A stretch of DNA of 63,902 nt, counting the filler, from Stramenopiles sp. TOSAG23-6 (Eukaryota), in assembly GCA_900128565.1 (NCBI GenBank). It is 3 parts of 3 records of this genome, joined end to end, with 100 filler letters (N's around TTAATTAATTAA, not from the genome) between each part and the next. Parts side by side here need not be neighbours in the genome. Positions count along the whole stretch, not along the records: positions 1 to 24,646 come from LT636002.1; positions 24,747 to 49,286 come from LT636003.1; positions 49,387 to 63,902 come from LT636137.1. One strand, given 5' to 3'. The notes beneath the pieces were generated by a model. It saw nothing but the letters and a program-made list of their open reading frames with translations. It was not told where the DNA came from and made no database searches. The position numbers were made by a program, and so were the translations under genes. Positions 11,746 through 54,700 of the stretch are shown in pieces (positions within the stretch are counted from its first letter, which is position 1; the number at the start of each line of letters is the position of its first letter).

Positions 11746-14700
11746 TTATAAAACATCTTTGTTTAAAACTGAATTGATTGTGTCTTCACTGTGTCCATCC
11801 TTTCGCATTTTCTCTCCAATTATTTTTTTCGGGAGTTTCATTAGATGCATTGCTTTGTAATGAAGTAAATTGTCCTCTGGTTGATCAACTCTAGGTTTTG
11901 GTGTACCATCAGAATTAGATATCAAATTTTCTGGGAGATTCATCAGATTCATTACTTTTTTGTGAAGTAGTTTGGTACTAGATGGCGTAGGTGGAGGTAA
12001 GAGTCCATCTGGGTGTAATTGTTGGGAAGGATTACTTGGCATTGAATCAATTTTGTCTACTACCTTGGTAGTAGATGGCGTAGGTGGAGGTAAATGTCCC
12101 TGTGGATGTAATGGATGCAATGGTTGGGAAGAATTACTTGTTATTGAATCAACTTTATCTACATCCTGTTGTGGATTCAATCTAGGTTTTTGTGTTTCTT
12201 CCAAATTAGATGTTTTTGTTTCAAGGGATGTTTTTCCTGTGGTTGATACATTATTATTTAAAATATCTTTATTAGTTGTTGATTTTGTTTCAAGAGATGT
12301 TTTTCCTGTGGCTGATACATTATTATTTGAAATATCTTTTTTAGTTGTTGATTTTGTTTCAAGAGATGTTTTTCCTGTGGTTGATACATTATTATTTGAA
12401 ATATCTTTTTTAGTTGTTTTTAATGAATCCGGTACTTGAATTTTATTTTCTACTTCCTTGTAATTAGTGTGCATCAAATCAGTCATTTTTTTCTCATGTA
12501 CTGCTGATTTGGTATAATGTAAACGTTCATTTCCTTGTGCTACTTCCTTTACTGTATTTAACGATTCTGAGACACTTACTTTGCTTCCTATTTCTTTATC
12601 GTCGGTATGTATCAATTCACTCAATTTTTGGAAACTATCGGTTTCAAGATCATCATCGGATTCATTAGTTTGGTTGGTTTCTTGTTTTCCTGTTTTCGAT
12701 GAGGAGAGATAAGAACCATCCTCTTGTACATTATTATGAGCACATTTTTCTATTGAAATCAAAACTGTAGGGAGGACATTTATCAAGTTGATACTTTCAG
12801 TTTTCAAGCTTTGTTTTGTGGAATCATTCGATAAACGAAAGTGTATAATATCACAAACGTTTTCCACGGTGAGAAATTTATTTCTTATTATTTCAATATC
12901 TTGGACGTCAGAAATATTTCGGTTTTTTTCAGCATCAAATTTTAGAACGAAGAAAAGTTGACCCCCGCCTACAAAAATATGTTCATTCAAATGAACGATC
13001 TTTAGCATATTACTTTCGTCGTTAATTTTCAGTACATTTCTTAATATTTTATCAAGACATTCCACAAATTTTGATTTCATTTTACCTTGTGCATTTTCTG
13101 TGAGTGATTCATCAGAAATGACTATACGACAAGCTAATGTAAAATTAACCGATGTATAAGCAACGGCGGCGTACATTCGTAGAGGGACTGCTACAGGAAC
13201 ATCTTGCGGTAGCATAATGTTCTCAGCGGCAAAACTCCATCCATAATCAGGTTCGAGCCGAATGACGCCATCACGTAGTTGATGAACTGCTTCTAAATCA
13301 ACAAATTCTAAATTATTTGTTTGCTGATAAAAACAAGAAAACATGCGCTTTTCGATGAATATTTGTACACGACATCTCAATGCACCAACACGTAGAACTC
13401 TAGCAACATGATACTTTGGATTGTGTCGACTAAACTTACATGTTAAATTTCGTTCATTCTTGAAAAATACAAACTCTCCAACCCGTGGAGGTGAATCACA
13501 GCCTAAAGGAATTAGCGTGGAGATAAATTCTTCTGTTACATGAACACCACGAGATGGTTTAAGGTTTGTTGAGTTAGTGAAAGTACAATCACTAATCTTT
13601 TGTTTGTCGTATGAATTTGTGAAGTAATCGTCTAAGTGTTTCTCCCACAAACTTCTTGGGTCATGTAATGACGTCGTATTACTATTTCTATAGCTTTGTT
13701 TTTTATATCGTTGCTTTTCTTTATATCTGACATATGCATCACCATCCTCGGGTGTTTGAGGATTGCGTAGTTGATCTATCAAATACATGAGCTTGTTTCT
13801 GTGAATAGGTTTCATTGAATTTAAATGATTATATTCAGTAAAGGTAATGAGATCTTCTATTGTGTCAATTCCCAAATGATTTACTAAATAATCATAATAA
13901 ATATCCAATTGTAGAGATTTGAGATAGTTTAATAAATCATCTGATGTATTGTTCTCATCTTTTTCATTACTTTGAAGATTTTCATTATTTGGAGTGTGTT
14001 TTGTGTTTGCTTTATTTGATTTTGAGGGTTCTTGACACGACTGAGTACCGGTATTAGCGAAAGTTTTCTTGACCTTTTGAACAGTTGCTATTTTTGATTC
14101 CTTATCATTTTTCTTCACACTATTTTTGAATGATTTACTACCTTCATTTACGGTTGATGTAAAATCAATATGATGTAATTGAGGTGACGTATTCATTGGA
14201 AGTTCATATTTTAATATAATATCATCTTCCCAAACCGGTTTTTTAAACGAAAAAGGCAACATATCATTTTCTTGTAATTCTTTTCTTATTTGTTTCTCTA
14301 GTTGCACTTCTTTTTGAGTTTTTTTCTGTACATTGCCACCATCAATATTATTTGTGTGTTGATTTTCTAAATATTTCAAACCTTCCTGAAGAATTAACCA
14401 AGGATTTGAAATGTCCATATTAGCTTGCTCTAGTCTTTCCATATCTACATATTGTTTTCGTGTTGACTCTGAAATGTATTTTGGAAAAATATTTCAAAAC
14501 AAATCTAAAAAAATTGTTAGGTACTAAATTTCGTACGAAAAAAAAATTGAATTTGAAAAAAAATAAAACATACATATGCTTCATATACTGATCAAGTGTT
14601 CTTAAATCTATATGACGATGTTTTATTGGTATTCCAAAACGATATTGATCTTCAGGATATTTTTTGATTACAGAACGCCTTGAGATATTATTGTTTTTAT

Positions 14701-15523
14701 CGGTAGATTTGAGAGATGCACTTGATGTTTTGTTGTTCATTTGATTTTCTACAGTTTTTAAAAGTTTTTTTAGAAATTTCTTTTGTTTTGGATCTTTTGA
14801 AGATTCTAGAGTTTTTAAAAGTTTTTTTAGAAATTTCTTTTGTTTTGGATCTTTTGAAGAGTCTACAGTTTTTAAAAGGTTTTTTAGAACTTTTTTTTGT
14901 TTTGGAACGTCTTTATTCATTTTCCTTTCTAGAGTTTGTAAAAGCTTTCCTAGAAGTTTCTTCTGTTTTGGATCTTTTGAAGAATCGTATATTAGTTTAC
15001 TTCGCTTGTATAGTTGGGCCCACGGATTAGAAGTTGATGACAGTAGTTCAACTTTATCAATTACATTTCTTGACCTATCTAATATGGGGTTTGTACTTGG
15101 TGTATTTACAACTGTTTTTTCTTTCATTTTTGTTATCTTTGTTACAGTGTTGTTACGCTTTACATTGTTAGTATCCTTTAGTAGAACTTCTTCTTTGTGG
15201 TTGGCATTTGGGTCGTTTTGTATCTTGTTAGTTTCTTCTATTACTGAAGGCTTTACATTATTGTAAGTATCTTCCTTTACTACATTCTTACTTTCCTTTA
15301 TATTTTTTATTTTTGCCAATGAATTTGTCTCCGTGTCGGAGAAGTCTGAGGCTGTATCATCCTCTTCAAGCGTTGGTCTCCTTATTGACTTTCCAATTGT
15401 TTTTTTCGATGCTGCTTCCGCAACGCGTTTTCTATGCGCCTTGGTAGCCTCCCCGGGAACAGTCTTCCGCATTTCAGTTGGATCATGATTCATCAGTTCA
15501 CTGATGAAATGAGGGGATGACAT
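11746..15523 (-). CDS. Large SAM-domain protein with internal tandem repeats; exons 15523-14574 and 14473-11746
   Basis: The two ORFs join in frame across introner 14474-14573. SAM-like YLKSLQLDIYYDYLVNHLGIDTIEDL...MKPIHRNKL; 69-bp and ~57-bp coding repeats. Confidence 0.75.
14474..14573 (-). mobile_element. Introner-like intron, GT...AT, flanked by AT/AT
   Basis: cat at|GTATGT...TTCGTACGAA...TACCTAAC...AAAATACAT|t tca. The adjacent AGs are out of frame. Confidence 0.88.
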
Positions 15524-22651: not shown

Positions 22652-24646
22652 TTAACTTGAGACCACTATTTTCTTTATGATTTCACCATTTGTTAATTCT
22701 GTTGTAGTTTTATTCTTTTTGATTTCACCATTTGTTAATTCTGTTGTAGTTTTACTCTTTTTCTTTTTCGTTTCACCATTTGTTAATTCTTTTGTAGTTT
22801 TACTCCGGTTGCGTTTTCTTGCCTGACCTCGTTTTCCTTTATGAGAATATGTTTTATATGGCTTCTTTGCTTCAACTTTTGGAAGTTCCCATTTGGATAA
22901 TTCAGCATAAGTTGATATTGCATCTCTCGATGGATACGATGAGATCGGATTACTTTCTTGAGCCTTGACAACTCCAGTCATCGCAAAAGAGATTGAGTCG
23001 TTTTCAGAAGATGAAGACGTTGACATTGAATCGCTTGTTACGACTCCTTCAGATGTTTGGGATACATCGGGTGACTTCCATACAGAGTTGTATACACCGT
23101 AAAAAATAGAACTATCGCGGGATATACATTCATCAAATCCAGGACCTCCATATAACTTTGCAGGATTTTTAAAACGCCAATGCCATCGAGTAGGCCATTG
23201 AACATGAGGTTTTTCACCCGCCCATTGAAGCCATTCTTGTCTTTCAGCTGGACCCCATTTAAGATTATGATTACTATAACAACATCCAGGACTAGGTAAG
23301 ACGATAGTACCATATCGAGCAGCAGTAAGACTTGCATCAGGTTCAGCAATTGTTTGCCGTTCCCAATAATTGCACTGACCCCAGACATATTGTGGTCCAT
23401 GTATTTTGGAAAAATATTTCAATTTTTTTTTTCAATTTGTTAGGTATAAAATTCCGTACGAAAAAAAAATTCATAGTAAAAAAAAAAATAAAACATACAT
23501 AACCTTTTGGTGCAACATTTGAATTATTTACAGGAAATGCCATCACTGTATCTCCGACGTCGCACTCCCGTAGTGTTACAGGAGGAGACACTACTCGTTT
23601 GAACGGCTTTGTTGTAAAAGAACATTTAGTTCTCGCATATAAATGAACAAGATCAGCTGCAGCAGCATGTGCAGGATTCTGCGATGCAAGAGATCGCAAA
23701 ACATCACGTATTAATACTAATTGTTGACGCATAGTAGAGACACCTTCAGCTGTTGGAGGATATACGACATCAGTGAGCTTACCTAAAATCAACCATTCAT
23801 TTGGTGGCGTATATTTTGAACAAGCGCTTAAAAGTCGCGCAATCATTGACACTTTTTCCTTTTTATCCCAGACCCCAGTAAGAATCTCCTTTGGTGTTAC
23901 ACGCCTGAGTGGACCAGTTTTATTTGATGTATCTTCCTGAACTACATGTTTAATCTTATCAAATGTAATGGCAAGATTTTGAACTCGATTATTAAATACT
24001 GTCGTTGCTTCCATTTCGGCAAAACTTCTAGGTAGTGGATAACCCGAAGCACGTGCAGCAATACATAACTCCGTGGGTAAATTATCTCTTTCTCTTTCAG
24101 CATAAGCAAGTATACTCGAACCCCATTTTTCTGCCCATTTTGGCAAACCATCTCTTGCGGCACCACCAACAGAAAATCCATGACGTACAAGTCGTTCGGC
24201 ATCAGACGATGATAGAGTTGGATTTTCACATGAATGAAGTATCGCACGAGTTCGTTCATATACTGTATGTTGTACAGCAAGAATTTGTTGAAACGCTTTG
24301 GAGTTCGAATAATATAAGAAACTACCACGACAACGTCTTGAGCCACAAAGACAAGCAGCAGCACGCCATTCATCAATACTTTCAGTTACAGAATTATAGT
24401 CAAAAGATAATTCTTCGCCATATTGTATATCTCTAAGCGTATACATTGCAATGACTAATCGATCTTTCACTGCCATTAATACAGTTGCACAATTTGGATC
24501 ACAACTATGACAAAGTCTAGATGCAAAATTACCACATGATATGTATTTTGGAAAAATATTTCAAAATGTTTTTTCGTTAGGTACAAAATTTTTTTACCAA
24601 AAAAAAAATAAATTCGATTTTTTTGTTAAAAAAAAAAAAACATACA
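22652..24646 (-). CDS. ATXR3: ATXR3/SDG2-like histone H3K4 SET methyltransferase, C-terminal part (5' lost in gap)
   Basis: GNFASRLCHSCDPNC, GEELSFDYNSVTES, CLCGSRRCRGSFL, NRVQNLAITFDKI, AAADLVHLYART and Y|GPQYVWGQ match the ATXR3 family pattern. Confidence 0.85.
23399..23498 (-). mobile_element. Introner-like intron, GT...AT, flanked by AT/AT
   Basis: ggt tat|GTATGT...TACCTAAC...AAAATACAT|gga cca caa restores YGPQYVWGQ. Confidence 0.88.
24541..24645 (-). mobile_element. Introner-like intron, GT...AT
   Basis: GTATGT...GTACCTAAC...GAAATATTTTTCCAAAATACAT|a tca tgt ggt aat ttt gca tct aga. The first AG after the branch motif falls inside the conserved SET motif. Confidence 0.85.
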
Positions 24647-24746
24647 NNNNNNNNNNNNNNNNNNNNNNNNNNNNNNNNNNNNNNNNNNNNTTAATTAATT
24701 AANNNNNNNNNNNNNNNNNNNNNNNNNNNNNNNNNNNNNNNNNNNN

Positions 24747-27700
24747 GATATGAAGATGGTGATTCTGAAAGAAGAGTTAAACGAAATTTGATTCGCTCAC
24801 TGGAAGAGAAAAATGTTGAAAATCATGTGGGTAATGGTCGTGATGATTTAGAGCAGAAGCAACTTTATGCCCTTGACAAATTTTATAGAGATAAAGATAT
24901 TCATCCTCGTATTGGTAAAGCAAAATCAGTTCTTAAAAAATTTAAAGGCCGTCTAGAAAAACTTTATTCCGGATTAGTGAGTAAGTATGGAAGTGCGCCA
25001 AGTATACTACTGGATACTCCAAGAAATATATCGAAACAAAATCATATTTTTCACAAAGGTGATAAAGTTGAAGCCGATTTTGAAGGTCGTGGGCGCTACT
25101 TCAAAGGCAAGATTAAAATGAAACACTCTGATGGTACATATGATGTAGCATACGATGATGGTGAAAGAGAGAGAAGAGTTAGAGCGGCACTTATACGTTC
25201 ACTTGATGAAAGGGCCATGTATTCACGGGAAAAGAAACAACGTCAGTCTCGCTCAAGTTCAAGATCAAGTTTCGGAAAGAAATCGAAATCTCGGTCAAGG
25301 AGCAGATCAAATTCTAGGTCTCGAGCTCGTCGAAGATCGTCATCAAGGTCAAGGTCTCGATCAATATCTAAGGGTGAACAATCTTTAAGAAATGGTGATT
25401 TAGTTTCAGCGAATTACTTAGAGAAGGGTAAATATTTTAATGGAAAAATTGTAATGGTACACAACAATGACACGTATGACATTCGATATAATGATGGAGA
25501 TTTTGAGCGCCGTGTTCATCGGAGGGACATTAAGCTCCGTAGTAAAAGGAGAAATCATTCTCGAGAAAGCCGAAAAAAAAATAGAAGACGAAGGTCTCTC
25601 TCTGAATCACGTTCTCGAAGTCGATCAAGTCGGTCTAATTCAAGATCAAGATCTCGAGGGCGTAAGCGTTGGCGTTCCAAAACCTACTCAAGTTCTCGAA
25701 GTCGTTCAAGAAGAAGTCGTTCAAGAAGTTTTTCAAGAAGTCGTTCAAGAAGCCATTCAAGGAGAAGTCGGTCAAGAAGTCATTCAAGAAGAAGTCGTTC
25801 AAGAAGTCGTTCAGTAAATTCCCAAAAATCTACAAAGTCAAACACTTCGAATTCTACTACCTCTTCTTTAAGATCTCAAAGTTCCTTCAAAGAAAATATT
25901 GAAATAGGTATGTTTGCACAAGTTCGGGAATACAATCGTAGAGGTCGCTGGTTAGAAGCAAAGATAACACGTGTACGATATGATGACACATTTGATGTGG
26001 AATACACAAAAACTCGGAGAAGCGAACGAAAAGTAGACCGATCTCGTATTAAAATACGCGAGCGTTCCTTGTCCAATGATTCTAGAAAATCAAAAAGCTC
26101 AGATTCGCAAGAATTATCAGATTCATCAGAGAGACTAAACAAATTTAGAATGTTTGAAAAAGTAAAAATTTATTTGGATCGTCGAGACAGACGAGTAGTT
26201 AAACCAAATTCGAGAAATGCGAAGAAATTTAATGGCACAATTGTAAAATTGAATTCTGATGGTACATTCGACGTTTCTATTCGAATACAGAAAAAAACAA
26301 AATCAACTGGTAAAATAAAATGGAAGAAAACAATAAAAAGCCATATTCGGAAGCAGTATATAAAGAAAGACCTCAAAAGTAAAGAATTGCGTCGTCCTTT
26401 GACACTGAAAGATTTGAAGAGGCGTTTAGGTTCTGATATGATTCGAGATTATCAAGCATTATTTGAAAAATACTCCTCATCTAAAAAGGGAAGAGAGGTA
26501 AAAATGACAACAACTGCATTGCAAAAGATTTTTATTCTTGCCGGTGTCCCCGAAAAATGGGCATTTGATCGTGCTTATCATTGGACATCGTCGTTTTCGG
26601 AGATTTCTGAAAACGACAAGAAGAAGAAAACTAAACATGAAATCAAGTTGGTGGATTTCATTCATGCAATTCGGTATCTTGAAGACCCATTAATGAAAGG
26701 TAAATTATTTCAGCGACTTCAACGGAAAACTAATGTAAGTATGGAATTAGAACCTGACAATTGGCATAATGAACAATGGGCATTAAGTATTGGGGAAGTA
26801 ACTTTAAAAGCTATAGAATCTGCGTTTGTACTTCATAGTATAATAAAAAAGAGTACATTAAGTAAACGTGGAAAAGAAAAGAAACTAAATTCAAACACCA
26901 AGGAATTAAAAGATAGCACGGATTCTTTGAGTAAGCGAAACGATAAAAAGTATATGAAAAAGAAGAAAGAATATAATAACGTAGCTACAGCCTCTAGTGA
27001 TTCTGATCAAGATGAGCACCTTCCCGTAAAATTAAGACTTCCTGTTCGTCGCTTACTCAATGTTCTGCTATTGGTTGCCCCAAATGATGACAGACTTACT
27101 TCTAGACGTATAAAGGAGTATGCTTCGTATACAGGGGTAAGTTTTGAGAAGGATGTACTTGCAATATCTGAATGTGCGAAGGCTTTTCATTACCTTTGTC
27201 TCGATGCAACCCTGTTTGGTGTAACTATTGGTGCTCTCCGCAACAGTCCAAGGAGGAGTAATACACATCCTGGATTTGTAGAGCCCCATGTTAAAAATGC
27301 ACTTCCTCCACTTTCGACTTTAGCGGCACATATATTTGCCGAACATGGACTCCGAGGTATTGCAAAGAACCCAGCTGCAACAGTGCGCCAACTATCTGTA
27401 GGGCGACCTCAGCCTCAAGTAGATGCTCTCATGCGTTTACTTACAGAATTTCAGACTCTAGATCCAGAAAAATTAGGCGAAATTCCAATCAGTCATGTGG
27501 GAACTATATTAAATGCAATGGGTTGGGACCCAAGGCCTCTGCGATCGCAAATATCCATATTTAATACACAAATATCTGCCATGGGATCTTCGCTATTTTC
27601 GCTTCCTGAATTTGTTTCTGCATTTGGATTTTTACTAGAGAAAGAAGGCGGTGATGGATTCACAGTTGCTTCTGCATTTGCATTCCTAAGAGTCCAACAA

Positions 27701-39700: not shown

Positions 39701-40603
39701 AAAACTGATTTCGAAAAAGAGACTGAAGCTCAGAAACGACGACTAAATATAACTTCATCTCATACCAATGAAAAAATGGATTCTCCAGAGATTAAAATTG
39801 TCAAGGATACTACTTCTGAAAGTAATGATGCCGATATCAAGATAAACATCAATGATACAATTGATGAAAACAAATCTAAGAATATAAAGAATGAAGTTTC
39901 TCGGATGGAAGATTTTCTATCAGAGTTAGGTGATGATATCATTGGAGTTAAGGAAGTATTTGATGCCCAAGTAGAGTCTTTTGGCAGCAAAAACCAGCGA
40001 ATATTATGGTCCTCCGTTCCAGCTGTTTTGAGAAAATTACAAAAAATACCAGATGTGGATACAATGAAGAAGGTAAAGAGTGCAAGTTCAGACACCATTA
40101 ATTTGTATAATGCTAGGGAGAAGAGTACAAAAAAGAAATACAAAATTAAAGATAACACAGAGTTATCTATTGACTTTTATCAATTTTTAGAAATTTTAGC
40201 AAAAAGTGAAAGTATTGGGGATTATTCAGAAAAAGTTAGAATATCAGAGTTAAAGGCCGATGAACGGGCAATTCCTAAGAAAACACAGAAATTTAAAAGT
40301 GTAACATCCAATAAATTTGAAGGCGGAGTTGGTACAACAGGAGGTGGGCGATTTGGCCAAGATGAGGATGATGAGATTGAAATGGATGCATATGATATAG
40401 ACATTATTCAAATTGATCGGAAAAGCCAAAAGAAAAAGCGAAGAAAACGCAAGTCAATTGAAGAAGGTAAAAATGCAGATGGATCATCATCTAATTCATC
40501 ATCTAATTCGGATTCAAGTGACAGTGGAGAAAATTATAAAAATGGACGGAAACACAGTTCAAGAAAATTAAAATCTAAAGGTAGAAATACTGATGTAAAA
40601 TAA
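24747..40603 (+). CDS. Giant (>5,270 aa, 5'-truncated) multidomain protein: Tudor/Agenet-like repeats, RS region, ~4 PUB-like domains, EF-hands, WD40, AP2 domain, pseudokinase-like region
   Basis: One uninterrupted ORF. GDKVEA...YFKGKI...DGTYDVAYDDGE repeats; YINNILKQP...GGIALMNAIGF; DLNNDGIISQDD; GHTAAITAIAF...SASYDGSVRLWD; SRFIGVSW...EIEAARAYDDAA...TNF; CLQQDWKNRPSIKTLLSHPFF. Confidence 0.85.
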
Positions 40604-41275
40604 TTTCGAAATGATATGAGAATCTTTGAGGCATTAATATAGTATAAGAAATTGAAAAATTAATAAATTTTGGATTTCATCATTTATATTCTTTTTAGTT
40701 TTTAATATATTTTGTATCGTGAACATAAAAAACATATTAAAATTTGTACTGTTACCCGGTACCCACAATGAAAAAAATAACTCATAATAATAATTGTATC
40801 GGTGGAGAATTGAACCCAGTACAAAAAGTACAAAAAGTACAAAAATATTAAGAATGAAAAACATGACATTGTTAAAGGTTTACTCAAAGAAAGATAGAAT
40901 CGAACTATTATCCAATTAACGATTTAAAAAAATAACGCGTTGAAGATAGAATCGAACTATTACCCAGTTAAGGATCCACAGCTTTGAAGGCTGCGCCAAG
41001 AACCATCTTGGATCATCATCGCCTCGCCAACACCGAAGAATGAGACTGTTATACGAACAGTGTACCTCAAACATGTGTGTGGTAGATCAACGGCAATAGC
41101 TCAATGTTTAACTACTGAGCCACGCAGAAAATCAGAATTATAAAAAAATGATTTTACATGAATTTTTCTTTTTGTGTACGAGGTACCGGGTAATGACTAT
41201 ATCCGTTGAAATGGCCGACCGTTTTTGCCGTTGTACTCTAGGTACCAAACTAGACTGGAAGGAATATTTTCAACA

Positions 41276-42762
41276 ATGCGTGTTATCTGGAATGCTCTAC
41301 CAATTTTAGCAGTCCTTGCAATTACCAATGGAGAGGAAGATGTTACCAATAGCCAAGAAGATGGTACTCTTCAACTCGAAGTAAAAGATATTGGTACTCT
41401 CACAGTTCCTGCTAATGTTGAGCCAGCTAATGCAGTTGAAAACTTTGCAGCTCAGGTAAGTTGTATTTTTCTTTAATATTTCCAACTTTTATTATATTTT
41501 ATGTTTCGTTATCTTATATGTAGTAAACCCACAACGTATAACTCTATATTACAGGCAACGGAATCAGGAATAGGTATGAACCTTGAAGCAATGGAGCAAA
41601 TGCTGGACTATTTCTGCAGTAAACGCAGTTGCACCCGTAAGTTAGCTGGGCGACTTGAACTTACAATTGATGGTGTCGGCCGAGTTGTATGCGAAGCATG
41701 GGAGGAACCAGCAACAGTGGTTGAGAAATTTTCTGGAAAAGCATCAGCAGCTGGTCATGGCATCACAGAGCAAGCAATGAATCAAATGATGGACTTTTTC
41801 TGCCAACGAAAGTCATGTAATCGAAAGGTGACAGGTCCTTTAAAACTAACAGTCAAAGGTTTGGGCAGTGTTGAATGTCAACCTTGGCAAGATCCTGCAG
41901 ACGCAGTGGAGCAATTTGCTGGTGCTGCAGTTGCGGCTGGTTTACCAATATCTCAGGAAGGTATGGAAGATATGTTGCTTTGGTTTTGTCAGCGAAGAAA
42001 ATGTTCACGTCGTCTGTCTGGGCCATTGTCACTAGAAGTGAAAGATGTCGGAATTGTAAAGGTACAAGCTTGGGAAGATCCAATGACAGTTATTGAAGAA
42101 TTTGCAACCAGAGCCGTAGAAGCAGGTCATGGTATAAACGATGAAACTCTGCATAAAATGAAAGACTTTTTTTGTACACGAAAGCAGTGCATGCGGGAAG
42201 TTAATCCAAGGTTGGAGTTGAATGTTAAAGACGTTGGTAAACTTATTGTTGCTCCTTGGCAACAACCAGCAGCGATGATAGAAGACTTCGCCGCACAAGC
42301 CGTTGCTGCTGGACATCCTATGTCGGAAGAAGCGATGTCACAAATGTATGAATATTTTTGTACTAAACGTCACTGCAACCGGGAATTATCAAAAAAGATG
42401 AGCTTGGAATTAAAAGATGTTGGCACGTACGTTTTTAAAATTGTTTTTTTTTTCGTAAGAAATTCCGTACCTAATGATTTTTTTTTAAATTNTTTTTTTT
42501 TTTTTTTTTTTTTTGAAGTAAATTTTGTACCTAATTAAAAATATCAAATGTAAAATATTTTTTCTTATACATTCTTGTGGTACTTCCATGGCAAGATCCT
42601 GCAGACTCCATCGAAGATTTTACATCTCAGGCCACCAATGCAGGACACAAGGTAGGTCCAACAGAAATGAGGAAAATGATGGAATATTTTTGTGCAAGGA
42701 GAAGTTGCCAACGATTGAGTCTCAATGCTCCACAAGCAGCAGCATTACATAAAGAATTATGA
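41276..42762 (+). CDS. Signal-peptide protein built from six ~62-aa CxxxxC repeats, ending in HKEL; exons 41276-41455, 41555-42426, 42573-42762
   Basis: Repeat LxLxVKDVGxLxVxPWQxPAxxVExF...AGH...MxxMMxxFCxRKxCxR. Canonical GT-AG intron 41456-41554 plus introner 42427-42572. Confidence 0.8.
42427..42572 (+). mobile_element. Introner-like intron, GT...AT, with a duplicated GTACCTAA block
   Basis: ggc ac|GTACGT...AAATATTTTTTCTTATACAT|t ctt gtg restores KDVGTLVVLPWQDP, matching the sister repeats. Confidence 0.85.
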
Positions 42763-42901
42763 TCTTATGTAGAGTTATGCTTAGAAGGTATTTTCTTTTA
42801 TTATTATACAGTACTATAGTCGAATCAAAGATGAAAATCTAATTTATAATTTTGAATTATGATAAAAATAAAATAGTTGATACAAATTGATTATAAAATA
42901 T

Positions 42902-45178
42902 TTACGACCAGACAGTCTTTTTCGAAAGCAAGCGCCACTTCTTTCGCTGATCTCTTATTAAGAACTCTACAGATTTTAGTAGTATTTTTGCATCTAGGAA
43001 GCAAACATCAGATCCATAAACAACGGCTTGAACAGCTAACATTAACTTGTCAACTTCACGACCTGAAAATTTGTCCATTTGCTTTGCCACTTTTTCAATA
43101 ACTTTATCTGTTATATCATCTGAAACTTCAATTTTGGCATCTCCATTCAAACCAATTTTTGCCCACATACGATTGATAAATGTATCTCTTTTCTTGTGTT
43201 GTAGTATATACTTATCAAAATACAGTTTTGTAAGTTTTATTCTTCCTTGCAGATCAGGAAGAGTATATTCTAAGGCTTCGTCTAAACGATCAGCTACAGC
43301 CATATCGAGATCACCTGGCCTATTTGTCGCAAGGACCATCATAAAATCTTTTTGTGGTGTACCCGTGTGATATAAAATAGCAGACACTGCATTACGAAGA
43401 GTTTCTGAAAGAACATTATTACGAGATCCAAGGAAAGCTTCAGCTTCATCAATAAATAAAAGTAAGCCTCTTTTGGAACTTCGTGCCCAATCCATTACCT
43501 TATGCAATTCAGTGACCGCTTGCTCACCCAATGGAGCTACATCTCCACCAGACATAATTGCATAATCAAGACCAGCTCTATGCGCTAGCTGACGAGCGGT
43601 CATTGTTTTTCCTGTTCCAGGTGGACCATGGATTATGAAAAATATTTCAAACATTAAAATCGTTAGGTACAAAATTTCGTACGAAAAAAAGTAATTCGAA
43701 ATTGAAATGAAAACGTACATAAAAGAGGAAGTGTCGCATTGGTGCACCATGCCTTCGCGCATTACCGATTGATAATGCCATACGTCGGAGACGAATATCT
43801 AATTCATTGGGTAAAATAATACCTTTAAAAGCATCGGGCTCTTTAATACCTCGAAATCGTCGATACATTTTCATTATTGATTGTTTTGTACGGTTAAATA
43901 AAGAAAAATGATGATTATCTTTAGAGCTTTCACGTAACAAATCTGGTCGCTTCAATCGTCTTGCTACTTCTGCTGCCATCACCTTTGCAAATTCTTTACT
44001 TACAAACAGCATTAGACCTGAAACTCCAAGGAATAGACCTGTCGTAATTAGCTGTTGTGGAGAGGATAAGAAATGTGCTATACCTTCTCCAAGTAAACGA
44101 AATCCAGTCTTGATTGCAGCAATAAGTTTCTGACGATCATGAATAGCCTGCTTTGCCTGCATGTATCGTGAAAAATATTTGTAGTAAAAAAAATCGTTAG
44201 GTACAAAATTTTCATAGTAAAAAATAAAATGAAATGAATGATGAGAACGTACATTCGTTTGGCAATATCTTCGTTTTCTCTTTCTTGACGAATTTTTGAT
44301 TCGCCTTCTATCTGCGCTGCTTCTACAGTTGCTTCTGCCTGTAACTGTGCACGTCGCATCGCCGCCTCCGCTTTCATCTCTTCCAAGTCTCGTTCATTTT
44401 GCATTCGATATGTCTCTTGAACACGAGACGCTTCAGATTGAAGAGAAACGAGCTCTTCATTACGTTCGCGAGCCATTGAATTTTCTACCTTATTTCGCTC
44501 ACGAGATAACCGATCATCATATTCAACATTAGCTGCCTCCTGTTTGGCTTTGAATTCAAGACTTTTCCGATCCTGATCACCCTTGGTGCGTTCTTTTTCA
44601 ACCCAAAGTTCGGCTAACCGTACCTCTGCTTCCTTTAATTTTCGTTTATTCACTAATTCCAACTCTGCTTCTTTCAATAATCGAAGTTGTACAAGTCCTA
44701 ACTCATCTTGGAGACTTCCTAATTCAGATGTGATATTATGATTGAATCCAGTGAAGTATTCAAATTCACTAATTAGCTGTTGTGTCGCAGCGATGTTAGT
44801 CCAAAACAAATTTGTTGGATTAATCATATGAAAGTTTTCTACTTCCATTTTCTTTTCTTCATCTTTCAAATGAACATTTATTGAAGGCATCACTGTCACT
44901 GCATCTGGTAAAACAGCTAATAATTCCTGTGCAAACACTCCAACATGTCTTCTATTTTTAAATCGAGCACTCTCAAATTGTGAAGAGACATATTCAAACT
45001 CTTTTAGGCTCAACCTTTTTAAGAGTCGCATAGAGTCAAGTGTATCTACCGGCATGACATTTTTCTTAACGCGCTTATCGGAGGCAATAGCGTGGAAAGC
45101 GTATACATCTATTGGACAAAGAAGAAATATATATACGAAAATGCATATCAAAATGCAGGTTCTAACCAATATGCTCAT
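42902..45178 (-). CDS. ATAD3: ATAD3-like AAA+ ATPase with an N-terminal hydrophobic leader and a peptidase S74/ICA domain; exons 45178-44253, 44160-43719, 43627-42902
   Basis: RHFLFY|GPPGTGKT, GLDYAIMSGGDVAPLG, LLFIDEAEAFL, VLATNRPGDLD, FSGRE, PDLLRESS and RENEDI match ATAD3. SDKRVKKN...GVFAQEL..VLPDAV matches the ICA domain. Confidence 0.88.
43628..43718 (-). mobile_element. Introner-like intron, GT...AT, immediately before the Walker A motif
   Basis: ttt tat|GTACGT...TTCGTACGAA...TACCTAAC...ATAATCCAT|ggt cca cct gga. Confidence 0.9.
44161..44252 (-). mobile_element. Introner-like intron, GT...AT
   Basis: cga at|GTACGT...GTACCTAAC...CACGATACAT|g cag. The nearby AGs are in the wrong phase. 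Confidence 0.88.
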
Positions 45179-45486
45179 GTCTCAAATGGATTAATTCTAG
45201 ACTGGTAGATGAATGTAAGTAGCTTCGAATAAGTACATACTTTTCATGGACAAAAGTAGTGTCCGTTGCTTGAAACCGTCGACCGTTATCTTAGTATGAA
45301 AAATTCGTACCAAACTGGCAAACGCAAATTTGCTATTGTCATACTTGTTTAACAGTTGAGAGCTTCGTGTGATAAGCTCGCTAGTCTTGAACAAATTTCA
45401 ATTATAATTGTGCTTAAATGTATGTATCATATGTGTCATATGTGATACGGATTACTGGTTAAAGTGTAGTATACTTTTTGTTCCTC

Positions 45487-48400
45487 ATGCCTAGTGTAGA
45501 CGAAAAAGAAGTTCCCACTTTCGGAGAGAAAATTTCTTCTTCTGAAGAAATTACATCAAGTGAGGAGAAATATAGTACTGAGACAAGTAGTCATTCAAAA
45601 ACACATCGTTCTGAAAACTCGGATCCCGAAGAATGGTCAGATCACTCCAGTGTAGCGACATACTTTGATCTCATTGATAGATTACTTTCAAATGATGCTT
45701 CACTCGTAGACATCGATTTGGGTCAGGCAAAGCTGGGTGATAAGGGGGCAACAACAATTTCAGAAGTTTTAAAGACAAATACCAAAATCCAATCGTTAGA
45801 CTTGACGTTCAATAATATAGAAAGTAAAGGTGCAGCAGCAATTTCAGAAGCATTTGGCTGGATAGAAGGTTGTGATAGATACCATAGGGAAAACGGTGGA
45901 GATATACCTTCAATTGAAGAGGAAGAAGTTACAGATGAAGATGAGGACAAAGATAAAGAAGATGAAGAACAACTAGAAGAATCCGAGAAAAAACACGATG
46001 AAGATGTGGACAAAGATAAAGATCCCATTACAAAAATAGAATATAGAATTGAAGGGAATAATAATAATACCATAGCTAAAGTAGAGGGTGATGATGAAAA
46101 AGAATGCGTTCCAGATTTTGTACCTCATCCTATGAAAGCTTGCTCATCTTCACTGCTAGCTATTGACTTGTCTGAAAATCCTATAGGTCCACACACTTCC
46201 GCTGAATTTTTAAGAGCTGCTGTGGTTTCTTTAGAAGAGATTAGAGCAGTAGGTATTGGAGCTGGCTGGTTAGGTGCTTTTGGCGTGGCTCATGGTTTAG
46301 AAGAAGTCGAGACTTGCCCATTACGTTGCTTAGATCTTTCACATAATAATATAGAAGACAAAGGAGCCGTGCGACTTGCACAGGCATTAAAACACACGGT
46401 TAAAAGAGAGTCTGCGTTTGATAATACAGGCCCGGTCGCTAAGCTTCGCGCACTATTCTTGAATAATAATGGTATCGGACCGACAGGAGTATCCGCATTG
46501 TGCGATGCACTTCGTTTTCATAAACATATTGAAGTATTGCAACTAAGGTTTAATCGAATAAGAGTAGATGGCGCTGCAAAGGTTTCCTCATTTATACGGT
46601 ATAACAAAACAATTACTCATCTGGACTTACGTTCATGTGCCCTAGGTGATAAAGGCTCGAAAAGATTAGGAAGTGCTCTAGAGTCGTCACAAGGTATTAG
46701 ATCCCTATGGCTTGCAGGAAACCAAATAGGTGAAAAGGGAGGGAAATATATATTTCTAGGACTACAACACAACAAGACGATTACTGAATTGGACTTACAT
46801 AGTAATTTCATCAACGATGAAGCTACAAAAGCATTATGTGGCACACTCGAAGAAAATGTGACTCTTCAAATGTTAAATTTGCGTGACAACAAAGTAAATT
46901 GCGCAGGTGCATCCAATATTGCAAAAGGATTGTCAAAAAATGGAACGTTACAATATTTGGATTTATCACGTAATACAGTTGCAAATGTTGGGGCTTGTGA
47001 CCTTGCATTCGCATTGAGTGCTTCAATGTCTATGAGGAAGCTTGATATAAGCGACAATGCAATAGGTGCCAAAGGTGGATCTGCGTTAGAGGCTTGTAGA
47101 TCATCAAGTTTAGAAAAACGGATGGAGCAGCACAACCAGCTCCAGAGAGAGCGTCTCGAAGAAATAAAAAGAATCAAAGAGAAGCAAGCAAAACGTAAAA
47201 AAAAGCATCTCCAAAAAATAGCAAAACAAAAGGCACAACGAAGAGCTAAAGTATTTGCTGATGCTGTTTCAAATGGAAAAATCAAGATGTATTCATTTAG
47301 CGATGATGACTTGAGTGACGTTTCGAATTCAGTTGATGAAAGCAAGATCTTAAACGGACAAGATAGCAATGAAACCAGAATTATCCGCATTGACTACTTG
47401 AATGAAGCGAAGACTGAAGATGATGAAATGATAAGCTCTGAGAGCGATACACAAGTTCAGGAAGAAGAAATACGGTTGCATATACTATCAAATGCAGTGG
47501 AACCTCCACCAATTTTAGAAATTGAGATGGGCAATGAACGTTTACTCACTGGCAACCCAGGATTTCTTCATGTATCACCAAAAGAACCCGATATATACAC
47601 AGAATTAGAAATTCAATGTATGCACCAATATACTAGACGAAAGAGGCCAACAGTAACACCGCGCATGAAACATCGAGCTCAAACTACAATAATTAGGAAG
47701 CACAAAAAGCATAAATATCGGCAAAGATCAAAAACAACACATCAGAGACAGACTGTGAAAGATCGTCTCAAAACGGTTGACTTTAAGTGGGATGATAATA
47801 TACCATCAAGGCCATCCACTAATCACACAAGGCTGTATACAAGTCAATCAAGACCTTATACGAGCATTACAAGACCACATACACATCACTCTAGGGCATA
47901 TACAGATGTTTTAAGACCTCACACAAGTATTTCAAGAGCACACACAAACTATTCAATATACACGAGACCCTATACGAGTAATACGAGGCCTTATACTAGC
48001 CGAACTGACATAAGTGCGGTGAGTTTTACTGACTCACTCACTGATTATTTCCAACGAGATACACATACCAAGGAGCGAGACACACGAAAGTTGCGTAGTC
48101 TATCGAGGTATTCGTCATTATATGGAGATACCACAAGAGCATCGACAACTTCAACAAAGAGTACCTGGATGAAATCCAGTGTTAAAAGACGCGAAAATCT
48201 TTTGGATATGTCCCCTCGGCCATACAGTAGACAACGTGGTATCATTGGTACTCCACTGTATTCTAAAAATCAGCATGGTCGACCTACATCCGAGAAAGGT
48301 GTTTTACATGTATATAATCGACCCAAGACAATACGCCGACATACAAAGAGTACAAGTACACATCTCTGGATGGAAACTACAAACGCCTCTACAAAACATA

Positions 48401-48597
48401 GTTTATATGAGGCAAAAGAACAGGCAGAGGCCGATAGACTTGCTTTGATAGAAGAAAAAAAGGCAGAGAGAGAAGCAAAGAAGAAAAAACGGGAAGAGGA
48501 AATGAAAGCATTACTAGAACGTGGATCTAGAAGTACTACTACATCATCCGTAACAATATCTTCCCGTTCAAGCACAAGAGGAGTATCTAATGAGTAA
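45487..48597 (+). CDS. Ribonuclease-inhibitor-type (NLRC3-like) LRR protein with a coiled coil and an RPxT-repeat tail
   Basis: Many 28-aa LxxLxLxxNxIGxxG repeats; SRPYTS/TRPHT repeats. Confidence 0.85.
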   Translation: MPSVDEKEVPTFGEKISSSEEITSSEEKYSTETSSHSKTHRSENSDPEEWSDHSSVATYFDLIDRLLSNDASLVDIDLGQAKLGDKGATTISEVLKTNTKIQSLDLTFNNIESKGAAAISEAFGWIEGCDRYHRENGGDIPSIEEEEVTDEDEDKDKEDEEQLEESEKKHDEDVDKDKDPITKIEYRIEGNNNNTIAKVEGDDEKECVPDFVPHPMKACSSSLLAIDLSENPIGPHTSAEFLRAAVVSLEEIRAVGIGAGWLGAFGVAHGLEEVETCPLRCLDLSHNNIEDKGAVRLAQALKHTVKRESAFDNTGPVAKLRALFLNNNGIGPTGVSALCDALRFHKHIEVLQLRFNRIRVDGAAKVSSFIRYNKTITHLDLRSCALGDKGSKRLGSALESSQGIRSLWLAGNQIGEKGGKYIFLGLQHNKTITELDLHSNFINDEATKALCGTLEENVTLQMLNLRDNKVNCAGASNIAKGLSKNGTLQYLDLSRNTVANVGACDLAFALSASMSMRKLDISDNAIGAKGGSALEACRSSSLEKRMEQHNQLQRERLEEIKRIKEKQAKRKKKHLQKIAKQKAQRRAKVFADAVSNGKIKMYSFSDDDLSDVSNSVDESKILNGQDSNETRIIRIDYLNEAKTEDDEMISSESDTQVQEEEIRLHILSNAVEPPPILEIEMGNERLLTGNPGFLHVSPKEPDIYTELEIQCMHQYTRRKRPTVTPRMKHRAQTTIIRKHKKHKYRQRSKTTHQRQTVKDRLKTVDFKWDDNIPSRPSTNHTRLYTSQSRPYTSITRPHTHHSRAYTDVLRPHTSISRAHTNYSIYTRPYTSNTRPYTSRTDISAVSFTDSLTDYFQRDTHTKERDTRKLRSLSRYSSLYGDTTRASTTSTKSTWMKSSVKRRENLLDMSPRPYSRQRGIIGTPLYSKNQHGRPTSEKGVLHVYNRPKTIRRHTKSTSTHLWMETTNASTKHSLYEAKEQAEADRLALIEEKKAEREAKKKKREEEMKALLERGSRSTTTSSVTISSRSSTRGVSNE

Positions 48598-48696
48598 CTT
48601 AAAATATGTACAAAAAATGCTCTTTATAGTTACATGTAGATAGAGCAATCATGAATTATAATAATAATCATGTTTTGTCATTCAAAATGTTATTAG

Positions 48697-49226
48697 CTAT
48701 TTCCGCCGCTTAGTCTTGGATTTTCGAATAAAAGATTTGGCCTTTAAAGACGGCATTTTACCGTTAAAGAAACCAGAAAATAAAGAAATTTCCCCAGTCT
48801 TTTTCTTCTTTTTCTTCTTCTTTTTCTTCTCATTCTTCAAACCAGAAACGAATGCCGCATTGAGGTTCATCGCCGGCCACTTTTGCACCTTGCACAATTT
48901 TCTTTTTTTTTTGCCATTACTTTCAATACTTTTTACCACATGATTTTGTTCCTTCTCATGATGTAGGACACTTACACTTTCTGCTGGTGAAGATATTTTG
49001 AGTTTGTTTCGTTTTTTTCCATTTCCTTTAGTTAGTTTTGCTGCATTTCCAATAGGTGCTGCAAAATCCTCTTCCAAGTTTACTTCCATTTCATTATCAC
49101 TTTGTTTTTGTGCTGCAAAATCCTCTTCCAAGTTCACTTCCATTTCATTATCACTTTGTTTTTCTGCAATGTTTGATGAATTTTTAGTATTATCCTCTTC
49201 ACATGTTTCATTCATACATCCATTAG
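48697..49226 (-). CDS. 3'-terminal exon of a Lys-rich protein (upstream part lost in gap)
   Basis: Open frame after an introner 3' end; 54-bp internal duplication. Confidence 0.55.
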
Positions 49227-49286
49227 ATAAATTTTGGAAAAATATTTCAAAAAAAAAAANCTAAANTTNGTNAGTACAAATTTTTT
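49227..49286 (-). mobile_element. Introner-like element, 3' part, ending ...AAAATTTAT at a gap edge
   Basis: TTTGTAC..., GAAATATTTTTCCAAAATTTAT|ct aat; low-quality bases nearby. Confidence 0.7.
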
Positions 49287-49386
49287 NNNNNNNNNNNNNN
49301 NNNNNNNNNNNNNNNNNNNNNNNNNNNNNNTTAATTAATTAANNNNNNNNNNNNNNNNNNNNNNNNNNNNNNNNNNNNNNNNNNNN

Positions 49387-49447
49387 GTTAGGTACAAAAT
49401 TTCGTACGAAAAAAAAACTTCGAAATTGAAAAAAAAATAAAGCATAC
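49387..49447 (-). mobile_element. Introner-like element, 5' part, at a gap edge
   Basis: gat|GTATGC...TTCGTACGAAATTTTGTACCTAAC. Confidence 0.85.
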
Positions 49448-51438: not shown

Positions 51439-51766
51439 GATAAAATAGATAAATTAAAACAGAATTTTAGATAATATTTGAATTACATGCATTTTGTTAA
51501 CAAATGTTGGTACTGCATTTAATATCAATAATTAGCTAATAATAATTTTAATAAAGACTTCTCAATATTTTACTTTTAGCTATATTTACTATGGTATTGT
51601 TGTTACCCGCAGTAATTGTCTCTATAGCCTAGCTAGGTAAATAAGGAATCTTATTTTTGTTACAAATGGCTAAATTTTTCTATGATTTCATTTATTTACA
51701 ATAAGTTATTTAAGTAGAACTAGTATCTACCATTTACACTATAATTTAATCAAGTTAAGGTGGGTG

Positions 51767-54700
51767 TTACTCTTCCTCTTCTCCAAATATCGCAATAGCC
51801 TTAGCAAATTTCGCTGTGACACGTTTATTTTCGGCTAACCAGGCATTTTCATCTTCTTGAATAGCTTTTGATATTGCTGTATCGATCTCCAGTTCAAGAT
51901 TTGTTTTTTCTTTGTCAGTTGCATTTGTTTTTCTCATTTGCTCTTCAGTAGCCAATAAAAGCGCCTGTAAAGCTCTTGTTGGTCTCGTACAGGAACTGTG
52001 GACACTATGAAGAACCTTATATGCTAGCTCAAATGTAAAGGGCCCAATGTTAGCCCACAGAGGAAGTTCCGGTTGTTCATCACTCTCAACACACACTGTC
52101 GATGTTGACTTATCCGTTTGATATTCTGTGCTAGTTGAAGTACTATCTGAAACATTTGTTGCCGATCGTCTTCTTCGTTTTGTACCATGACCTCGAAGTA
52201 CAGCGCGGTGATAACGTCTTAATTCCGGTATTGTAGGGTCAAGAGCTGTGTCACATCCGTAACACCAAATGGTGCCTTTTTTTAATCCAATAACTACCAA
52301 ATGACCACTACTTTTCATATGATCTAACATGTGGCGATTTGTATATCGACCGCAAAATACATTACCACAGAACAAGCATAACATATTTTCTTTTGTTTCT
52401 TCAGATACAGAAAGATTTTGAATTGAGTCACCTCTTGTTAGAATAGGTTTCGAAGAACGAATACCGCGACGACGGGAGTGTAAAGAACCAATATCAATGT
52501 CTTCAGAGTGCATTTTTATTGAAGATGCACACGTCACACAATTACGATGCACTAGGTTTTTATAGGCCTCTGTTTTAGACAGCAATGATTGTGATTGGAT
52601 ACCACTAATCGATGACTCCTTCCATGTACTCTTAATGTCTTGTACATTACTATTGTTTCGCTTTCGAGTTTTGCCTACAATCTTTTCTAGAGTAAGTCTT
52701 TGAAATAATACATCTTTTATATGAACACAGTCACTTTTAGCCTTTCCAATATGAGGTGTTGAAATTCTCTTTTGTTGTTCTTTAATTAAATTTATTCTAT
52801 ATTGAGGAAATGCTACAGACAATAAACATTCAGCTCTAAAAGCACTATAGGCTATTCTTCCTTCAGTAAAACATAGTTTTTTTGTTAAATCCAAGCTCTT
52901 CGCGGCATGCAATCGAGTAAGACCGAATGCACCAACATTACTCTGAAGTTTAGCCATTTCTTCCAAAAAAGACTTTTCGCGTTTTTGTTCCACCTCTGAC
53001 TCTATCCGCGATAAACGCATTGTTGCCTTTGTAAACGAAGCTGTTGCAACTGCCCTTGATTCAGCGCATAGCATAGATAGAACAGGATTGACAATTTTAT
53101 TCAAAGAATTCAGAATAATTTTTAACCCTTGAGCAATCTTGCATCCACTTAAAAGGTCTAGGGCTTCTGCAGCTTCTGCAACAGAATAAATATTGAATGT
53201 TGATGTGTGAAGAACTTGATGGTCTTCAAGTGAACTTACCCGTTTGTGCTCTATATTAGCTGCGCCATTTATTCTATTATATGCCTCTGCGTTATCTATG
53301 GCTATACCAATTAAACTGAGAACATAAAGACAAAAATCCGAAGCTGGTGCATTATATGCTTTTGAACTCGTAAGAGCAATCTGTATATCAGAACCATAAT
53401 CTCCAGAACCCAAGATAGCATCAATACTATAGCTACTTTTGTGCTTCTTTCGCCAAGCTGATATTTCTCTCAATCGATTAGCACTCAATCCACCTAGACA
53501 AACTCCACTTTCAGTATCATTTATGTCATTTAGTGATTTATTTATCGTACCACCAATACATTTTGAATCTTCATTTATGTCATTATTGCGTATGCCATTT
53601 GTCTCTGAATTACCTGTTTCCAACTGCTCCATGGCGTTCACCTTACCTTCCGTGTAATTTATAGTTGAATTCAATGATTCCAAAATAGTTCTATTATCAC
53701 CACTAGTGTCACTATCTGCATCATTATTCGAACTTTCCAAAATAGTTCCATTATCACCACTAGTGTCACTATCTGCATCATTATTCGAACTTTCATCGCT
53801 TTTTTGTCTTATATGAGTACCCTTTTGTTTCTTTTGTTTCTCACATGTGTATTGTATTCCAATTGAAGCTCTTTGTTTATCAGCAATAGCACAAAGCTGT
53901 TTTACCCTTATGAGTTTGCATGTTTTTTTGACACAACTATTTTTTGTACTATTTTTGCAACTAAATTTATGATTCGTACAATCAAAATTGGTTGTGATTC
54001 CAGGAAAATAATTAACATCTCCAAGATACAGGCCAAATCCAAAAGCATTCACTGAAAGAAAAATACTACCAGCAGTTCCATCTTGAAAAAGTTGGCTGGG
54101 AAAGCCCTTTTCAACTGTTGGGTCTAACACTACGATTTTATTACGTATCGTGAAAAAATATTTCAAAAAAATAATCGTTAGGTACAGAATTTCGTACTAA
54201 AAACAAAAAAAACAAAAAAAAATTAAAATGAAAACGTACACACGACATGAGCCAGAGATAATTTCGGAGACCGTAGTCAGTATCACGAACACTACATTTC
54301 GAGCCTGAGCGAGGATCTTTTGTACCACCCATTAATTTATGACCGATAGGATATATTTTTTTACCAGTACAAGAATATTCACGAGGATGCTCCTTCGCGT
54401 GAAAGAGTATTCCCATGTCATACGTACTTTGCAAGTACTCAGTAAGTACAGAATTTTGTAGCAATTTATTTTGAGTGACACCTTTTCGTAAAGAATCTCT
54501 TCTGTGAAGAAATAAATGTCCATGGTAAAGATCCCAACCTGTAAACTCGCAAGCCGTAGGTGCGTTGAATTGAATATGATGAAATAATGTAGCAAAAAAT
54601 TGTGCGCATTTTGGGTCTCTTAATTCCCTAATTTGTTCGCTTCTTCCACTAATAACGTGTTTCACAGGTGAAAGTAATGAATCTGGAATATTTTCATCTT

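Follow-up and report, generated by a model that had tools for sequence, protein, structure and literature searches.

A probable introner family that begins with GT and ends mostly in AT in the stramenopile TOSAG23-6

Lineage-wide non-canonical splicing is known from Amoebophrya, Fritillaria and the euglenids, and a 3′ AG is a near-universal feature of spliceosomal introns. Here we describe a family of short repeated elements in Stramenopiles sp. TOSAG23-6 that sit inside genes, begin with a GT donor and end, in most copies, in AT. The evidence from RNA contigs, reading frame and homologues supports the view that these elements are real introns taken out in the GT...AT register. Very probably they are introners, present in the sense orientation only, that the major spliceosome removes as GT...CAU or GT...CGU with a relaxed choice of 3′ site. 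The stretch of DNA analysed (the window) is 63,902 nt long and consists of three records joined with 100 filler letters between the parts (1-24,646 from LT636002.1; 24,747-49,286 from LT636003.1; 49,387-63,902 from LT636137.1), so that parts standing side by side are not necessarily neighbours in the genome. It is AT-rich (31-41% GC) and gene-dense, with long unbroken open reading frames (ORFs) in the standard code.

An nhmmer profile built from five copies and run over the window returned 10 loci at E ≤ 6.7e-6, including the five seeds of the model; the matches below them, at E ≥ 0.037, cover the latter halves of two copies already counted. Copy length ranges from 91 to 146 nt and is mostly about 91-105 nt. 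All 10 copies lie on the coding strand within ORF-bearing genes, with none intergenic and none antisense, and they are spread over at least seven genes that include ATAD3, a SET/SDG2 gene and a zf-UBP gene. An earlier note on this DNA had listed eight copies, every one of which was recovered where it had been placed. That note also called six of them complete; the six elements are indeed complete, although the one at 24541 has its upstream exon lost in a gap (N from 24647). Two copies, at 1-77 and 49222/49227-49447, come in addition to those eight. The family is laid out below, with a vertical bar marking an exon junction here and throughout.

1-77, plus strand: family copy truncated at the window start, of which the 3′ part is left; its end, ...GAAATATTTTTCCAAAATACAT, is followed by exon AGTTTCC (E 1.1e-13).
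491-597, plus strand: diverged copy of 107 nt, GTGCGT...CAATAC+CT (E 6.7e-6), with an in-frame GT-AG alternative at 489-610 that is equally good.
14474-14573, minus strand: family intron of 100 nt, GTATGT...AAATACAT, phase 2, assigned from frame and motif.
23399-23498, minus strand: family intron of 100 nt in a SET/SDG2-type gene, junction APKGY|GPQYVWGQ, assigned from the continuity of the SDG2_C profile.
24541-24645, minus strand: family intron of 105 nt in the same SET gene as 23399, 3′ exon beginning ..SCGNFASRLCHSCDPNC, assigned from frame and motif.
42427-42572, plus strand: family intron of 146 nt with an internal duplication and one N, its GT...AT register set by RNA.
43628-43718, minus strand: family intron of 91 nt in ATAD3, junction FLFY|GPPGTGKT, assigned from RNA and homologues.
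44161-44252, minus strand: family intron of 92 nt in ATAD3, junction AKRM|QAKQA, assigned from RNA and homologues.
49222-49447, minus strand: family copy split by the gap 49287-49386, with its 5′ end GTATGC at 49447.
54143-54239, minus strand: GT-ended family intron of 97 nt, GTACGT...GATACGT, junction LMSC|NKIVVLDP, assigned from homologues.

On the coding strand the copies share one layout, in which a GTAYGT start is followed by a central TTTCGTACGAAA-like palindrome, then by GTACCTAAC and GAAATATTTTTC, and finally by ATAC and two further bases. The donor is GTATGT or GTACGT in seven of eight copies and GTGCGT in the copy at 491, and the family donors match those of the GT-AG introns in the window (GTAAGT, GTACGT). 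Read in the GT...NT register, eight copies end in AT (six copies), GT (one) or CT (one). A branch-like motif, TACCTAAC, which includes the CUAAC branch core, stands 35-44 nt before the 3′ end; a U tract (AAATATTTTTC) is closer, at 8-10 nt from that end. Copy 14474 alone has an AG in the interval from the branch-like motif to the junction, and this AG is 31 nt before the 3′ end and out of frame. The longest copy, at 42427, carries two GTACCTAA motifs 60 nt apart together with a long T run holding one N, and it is spliced at its outer ends. A perfect form of the palindrome TTTCGTACGAAA, which might serve as a transposase site, lies at the centre of most copies (for example at 43680-43691), and GTAC is found again at the donor and within the branch-like motif.

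Removal from RNA can be followed over positions 40701-49259, to which contigs of three RNA runs (X7, X8 and X9) and of a DNA metagenome (X4) were aligned. X7 and X8 are polyA metatranscriptomes of two samples from one study and X4 comes from another study; the copies at 14474, 23399, 24541, 54143 and 491 lie outside this stretch. All three copies under RNA contigs (42427, 43628 and 44161) are removed exactly. The earlier note had named the two ATAD3 introns, 43628-43718 and 44161-44252, as places where transcripts would be informative, and in the X7 and X8 contigs their exons are joined exactly: one joint, 43626|43718, skips 91 nt and the other, 44159|44252, skips 92 nt. Both joints can slide by 3, a range that includes the coordinates proposed earlier, and X8 record 16 (1415 nt) lacks both introns. 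At 42427, X7 record 10 joins 42220-42426 to 42573-42827 with no mismatch at the joint and reads GGCAC|TCTTG. The non-identical flanks of this copy had been singled out in the earlier note as a way to fix the register. Position 42426 is C and 42572 is T, and 42427 is G and 42573 is T; this joint is therefore unable to slide, and the register at 42427 is GT...AT and not AT...AC.

This outcome bears directly on the possibility that the true register is AT...AC, 2 nt upstream, which had already been thought the poorer fit. The shift would leave the mRNA unchanged in 14474, 23399, 43628 and 44161, it would give a 3′ AC conserved in seven of eight copies, and A1/C-1 is a known compatible pair. At 42427, however, it predicts GGC|ATTCTTG rather than the sequence in X7 record 10, and it would have 54143 and 491 begin with GT, 42427 begin with AC and 43628 end in CC. 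The AT...AC register was rejected as contradicted by that RNA contig, and we regard it as extremely unlikely. At the covered copies the CAU site is the sole form in the polyA RNA contigs, and an AG 4 nt downstream of 44161 is unused in those of X7 and X8.

A canonical intron at 41456-41554 is also gone from an X8 contig, which identifies the contigs as mature mRNA. This observation is relevant to a different account, in which no splicing takes place and the joined RNA comes from strains or nuclei without the insertion, by presence/absence polymorphism or by programmed DNA excision. It is true that the RNA and DNA runs were made on separate samples and that transposon insertions may be polymorphic. 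Against such an account, the X4 DNA contigs (records 1-3) extend from exon into element at four boundaries, namely the 3′ side of 42427, the 3′ side of 43628 and both sides of 44161, and no joined, element-free form of these three loci was found among the X4 DNA contigs. Five variants (42759, 42914, 44756, 45026 and 45119) are common to the X4 and RNA contigs, so that the spliced RNA stems from an element-bearing genotype. The depth of the contigs points the same way: X4 places 1809 contigs on 8.5 kb, with a summed depth of about 21,000 on element bins vs about 9 on exons, whereas polyA X8 has 10 on element bins vs 8 on exons, summed contig depth not being a measure of copy number. Moreover, DNA excision would need no particular orientation, yet 10 of 10 copies are sense, and excision of a transposon that makes target-site duplications would not restore the frame exactly every time. 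We hold this account to be very unlikely, and elimination of DNA in the manner of internal eliminated sequences was rejected on the presence of the elements in X4 DNA, the lack of a joined form there and the uniform sense orientation.

Junctions were also placed by reading frame and homology. For seven complete copies, 3′ offsets were scored for an open frame over ±240 nt around the proposed junction. In five of them the frame stays open only at offsets that are multiples of 3 from that junction; the test gives no discrimination for 23399, which has two open frames, or for 42427, whose ORF stops short of 240 nt. As for the closest AGs downstream, their use would break the frame or remove conserved residues, in agreement with the earlier judgement that nearby AGs are unsuitable; at 14474, for instance, the AGs 5 and 7 nt past the junction are in the wrong frame. 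The earlier note had further observed that removal of the elements restores FY|GPPGTGKT in ATAD3 and YGPQYVWGQ at the SET junction, and both restorations are supported, the former by homologues and RNA and the latter by a domain profile. ATAD3 relatives P0002-P0004 carry FLFYGPPGTGKT across 43628, and P0002 carries AKRMQAEQA across 44161. Across 23399 the Pfam SDG2_C match stops at profile position 282 with 15 residues left in the exon and resumes at position 299 with residue 2 of the next exon, a continuity of 16 residues for 16 profile positions.

The GT-ended copy at 54143, which the earlier note had flagged as having an in-frame GT-AG alternative, can be examined in the same manner. A search with the upstream exon of its gene gave two distant homologues, P0122 and P0121, both ungapped across LMSC|NKIVVLDP; P0122 reads LRNYLWLMSSNKVLLLNP where the window has LRNYLWLMSC|NKIVVLDP. 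Three gene models were scored against these proteins.

GT...GT model: 98.2 bits vs P0122, 114 bits vs P0121.
In-frame GT-AG alternative: 88.2 bits vs P0122, 109 bits vs P0121.
Intron retained: 79.7 bits vs P0122, 100 bits vs P0121.

The GT...GT model thus scores above the GT-AG alternative for both homologues. Because the flanks of 54143 repeat, GT...AC two bases upstream would yield an identical mRNA, and the scores support a predicted splicing of this copy as GT...GT or as the equivalent GT...AC. By the same scores, the 3′ dinucleotide of the family would not always be AT. A search with the first 300 residues of exon 2 of this gene found no homologues among proteins of 435-1385 residues, and exon 2 of the gene at 491 gave a single match (E 5.2e-4) that lies far from the junction.

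Several features of the family resemble those of a transposable element. Both ends are known for seven copies. In five of these the final dinucleotide of the intron is identical to that of the exon upstream (AT in four, GT in one), and in the other two the flank repeat agrees at one of two bases. The termini form short inverted repeats of two subtypes, GTATGTTTT/AAAATAC and GTACGT/ACGATAC, that are 3-7 bp long and in most copies no better than those of shuffles. Two of the three long N gaps fall within or beside copies (24647-24746 and 49287-49386; two N runs around TTAATTAATTAA). The family repeat seems to break the assembly at its copies, as would be expected of a high-copy repeat. Together, the flank repeat, the subtype termini, the pile-up of DNA contigs and the sense-only copies make the profile of an introner, and we infer an origin of the family in a transposon. 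Searches outside the window were negative: a two-motif, variable-gap pattern matched 118 loci in metagenome contigs, all of them chance (best E of the family model 0.073, none ≤ 1e-3; three were checked by eye), and a 22-nt degenerate core of the family gave 0 matches in a genome contig collection and 0 in a viral contig collection.

Introners have been described from Aureococcus anophagefferens, Micromonas and the species covered in PMC9860276 and PMC12130899. They are like the window family in that multi-copy, near-identical short introns lie in sense in unrelated genes, with splice signals of their own, in marine protists that include a stramenopile; short flanking direct repeats and terminal inverted repeats may be common features as well. 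The difference lies in the 3′ end, since the known introners are described with canonical splice motifs (for Aureococcus, PMC7789003) and the window family has AT or GT ends. The introner elements of Amoebophrya (PMC7789003) are alike in being repeated non-GT-AG introns that resemble miniature inverted-repeat transposable elements and have direct repeats over the exon/intron boundary. They have inverted-repeat hairpins of 8-20 nt, direct repeats of 3-5 nt and no consistent terminal dinucleotides, whereas the window family always has a GT donor in a canonical hexamer, has branch-like and U-tract motifs, and has no significant hairpin. Fritillaria borealis (PMC13326754) is similar in its lineage-wide non-AG 3′ ends, which are handled by a spliceosome with a conserved core. 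In that animal the departure affects both ends, with 95% of introns escaping GT/AG, and recognition of the novel 3′ ends falls to duplicated U2AF paralogues; the window family, in contrast, keeps a canonical 5′ end.

We propose the following mechanism in outline. A short, non-autonomous, transposon-like element would have entered many genes of a stramenopile that is AT-rich and poor in introns, and would persist in the sense orientation only, because it supplies its own splicing signals. The two bases after ATAC, mostly a copy of the dinucleotide that ends the upstream exon, would then represent a 2-bp target-site duplication. The 5′ cut would be made at GT and the 3′ cut after the two bases past ATAC, giving an intron end of CAU (once CGU) in place of YAG and restoring the frame exactly. 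At the second step, the choice of 3′ site would be relaxed or re-specified, with U at -1 tolerated after a strong U tract as in yeast without Prp18. Four parts of this scheme have been observed: the exact removal from polyA RNA, the register, the occurrence of the elements in DNA, and the structure of the family.

The layout of GTAYGT donor, TACCTAAC and U tract is U2-type, which favours the major (U2-type) spliceosome as the machinery that most likely splices the family. Among U2-type features, the GT donor in a U1/U6-type hexamer is present and the 3′ AG is absent. Rfam over the window gave tRNA-Sec as its sole match. As a separate observation, the window holds an intronless gene for Prp19, a core spliceosome component, at 6535-8220 on the minus strand (Prp19 and WD40_Prp19 domains).

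U12-type introns, by comparison, have the donor RTATCCTT (core RTATCC), the branch consensus TCCTTAAC and a branch point about 10-20 nt from the 3′ end. The branch-like motif TACCTAAC resembles that consensus and would fit a reading in which the minor spliceosome splices the family and tolerates non-AG ends, GT-AT among them. However, the RTATCC core is found in none of the eight copies, all of which have GTRYGT as the nearby GT-AG introns do, and the branch-like A stands 35-44 nt from the 3′ end instead of the shorter U12 distance. Work on animal introns (PMC1557818) lists seven GT-AT introns of the U12 type and indicates that AT-AN and GT-AT introns can be spliced by the U12 machinery, although it also contains a U2-type GT-AT intron, in DGCR2, that is conserved between human and mouse. 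These animal introns share terminal dinucleotides with the window family but are isolated cases, whereas the family is repeated and forms the regional majority. Taken together, splicing of the family by the minor spliceosome appears unlikely.

That the major spliceosome could use such 3′ ends is suggested by yeast. Without Prp18, yeast uses non-YAG sites, with CAU and UAU the best of the non-G 3′ sites; mutations in the Prp8-Prp18 interface and in Prp22 act likewise, and the catalytic centre of the major spliceosome is able to ligate at HAU (PMC10711555). The parallel extends to CAU itself, to a probable dependence on an upstream U tract, to a GUAUGU-type donor and to a UACUAAC-type branch site. 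In yeast, CAU use consists of low-level errors in a mutant with nonsense-mediated decay off, whereas in the window family it is the only form in the polyA contigs of a wild organism. The terminal AT may be preferred for splicing or may merely be the insertion target. The earlier note had suggested that the 3′ end is measured from TACCTAAC and AAATATTTTTC, and this may be so. A more far-reaching proposal, which we offer as tentative and somewhat doubtful, is that at introner-derived introns the major spliceosome ignores the 3′ dinucleotide and cuts by position, 2 nt past ATAC and 8-10 nt after the U tract. If so, the ends AT and GT, and perhaps also AC or CT, would all function, a mobile element would have spread through a large share of genes without needing an AG, and the fidelity of the second step (the Prp18/Slu7/Prp22 or U2AF1 axis) would be relaxed or re-tuned genome-wide while GT-AG introns persist alongside.

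Position might also be set by the intron ends themselves, with GUAYG pairing to CRAUAC and the cut falling a fixed 2 nt beyond the helix at any dinucleotide, as happens in the nonconventional introns of euglenids and the hairpin introners of Amoebophrya. Consistent with this, the inverted termini differ between the two subtypes given above, minimum-free-energy or centroid folds pair the termini in three of five copies and leave the last 2 nt free, and the CGU-ended copy at 54143 is among those with better terminal helices. The energetics offer little encouragement, however, because the duplex energies run from +1.4 to -5.6 kcal/mol, the fraction of shuffles that do equally well is 0.012-0.83, the whole-intron z-scores lie between -0.94 and +0.34, and the energy of the consensus fold is -0.03 kcal/mol. 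In addition, 43628 has no terminal helix and yet is spliced in two RNA runs. Pairing of the termini as the determinant of the 3′ end is thus quite unlikely, and a hairpin or end-pairing model was rejected, the intron ends showing no stable pairing.

Several points weigh against removal of an introner family by the major spliceosome as we propose it. The role of the major spliceosome and the position of the branch point are predictions from sequence motifs. RNA contigs cover 3 of the 10 copies, with all joints drawn from two runs within a single study. Minor isoforms are masked in contigs, so that low-level splicing to the AG that lies 4 nt downstream of 44161 is possible. The third RNA run, X9, shows no joints, and its records 20 and 22 extend into two introns; these contigs within introns are retention or DNA carry-over. 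The copy at 491 has its GT-AG option and no homologue to decide between the two, and the CGU end of 54143 falls outside the HAU sites of yeast (PMC10711555). In the split copy at 49231, the 3′ end in the family register (49227) is out of frame, while an AT end 5 nt on, at 49222, is in frame, and four isolated Ns lie beside its gap. A repeat of 2 nt that is mostly AT gives weak proof of target-site duplication, AT being self-reverse-complementary and common here. Finally, no empty site or autonomous element was found, the genomes of relatives were not compared, and mobility of the element is accordingly put forward as probable rather than observed.

The way in which public annotation handles these genes is instructive. 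The closest database protein to the window ATAD3, P0001 (source label GSMAST32), is identical to it except where the gene model forces GT-AG; the label suggests a MAST-3 type. P0001 reads FLFYVRKTM and lacks the GPPGTG of the ATAD3 Walker A P-loop, a mis-model from which it follows that public annotation missed the family introns. It also drops further in-frame stretches, such as VENSMARERNEE and RVQETYRMQNERD, which P0002 contains and for which the window has an open frame, and these look like spurious GT-AG introns. A 2025 introner survey starts from annotated introns and counts only AG and AC as 3′ sites. With AT and GT ends and with models such as P0001, a family of this kind would be missed by annotation-based introner surveys. 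The available portions of PMC5778133, PMC12614181, PMC8163842, bioRxiv 10.64898/2026.04.17.719054 and the introner surveys make no mention of unusual introns in MAST-3-type genomes, although their supplements might list such a family, and a literature search on introners or non-canonical introns in MAST, MAST-3 or Nanomonadea, judged partly by title and abstract, found no report.

Introners are known and so is lineage-wide non-canonical splicing; what is new is an introner family that departs from the rule solely at the 3′ dinucleotide. It adds a free-living and abundant marine lineage to the very few that routinely splice non-AG introns. Since donor, branch-like motif and U tract are all textbook, the family allows the choice of 3′ site at the second step to be studied by itself. 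It also presents an introner able to spread without supplying or recruiting an AG, which widens the definition of a viable new intron. On the practical side, gene finders that allow only GT-AG break the genes that carry the family. If 10 copies in 64 kb should prove typical of the genome, a large share of gene models, gene counts, completeness scores and 'pseudogene' calls would need re-checking.

Ordinary introns stand beside the family. The earlier note had cited normal GT-AG introns at 9253, 41456 and 60070; the one at 41456 is verified by an X8 contig that removes it, and the one at 60070 stands as a prediction from the genomic DNA. Its claim that this organism routinely splices GT-NT introns is a fair one within the window, where about 10 family introns compare with about 3 GT-AG introns.

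41456-41554, plus strand: GT-AG intron GTAAGT...TACAG, the positive control; X8 record 14 joins 41267-41452 to 41552-41721, and the joint slides on a CAG repeat.
60070-60164, plus strand: predicted GT-AG intron GTACGT...TTTACAG in a leucine-rich repeat gene.

Some loose ends concern 49231-49239, where an RNA contig pair of another family copy ends ...CCAAAATACAT|GTTCTTG. Other copies there hint at ...ATAC+AC and at a canonical ...TTTCCTTTAG|G (...CCTTTAG); agreement over all these ends is 0.73-0.97 from 2-3 contigs each, and as the ATAC+AC and CCTTTAG ends have 0.73-0.88 from 2 contigs each, they are hints only.

A few neighbouring genes deserve brief mention. ATAD3 itself (42905-45181, minus strand) and its closest relatives (P0001-P0004) carry an N-terminal Peptidase_S74 domain (PF13884) before ATAD3_N and AAA, and plant homologues are listed without PF13884. 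The tRNA found by Rfam is a selenocysteine tRNA gene at 40936-41022 on the minus strand (anticodon TCA, 64.3 bits), which indicates that the organism probably makes selenoproteins. A single ORF of about 5,280 codons with PUB, EF-hand, WD40 and Agenet domains occupies 24749-40603 on the plus strand, with no intron in 15.9 kb. At 57667-59556, also on the plus strand, a Cys-loop ligand-gated ion channel (Neur_chan_LBD, Neur_chan_memb) has EF-hand matches past its transmembrane region, an unusual combination.

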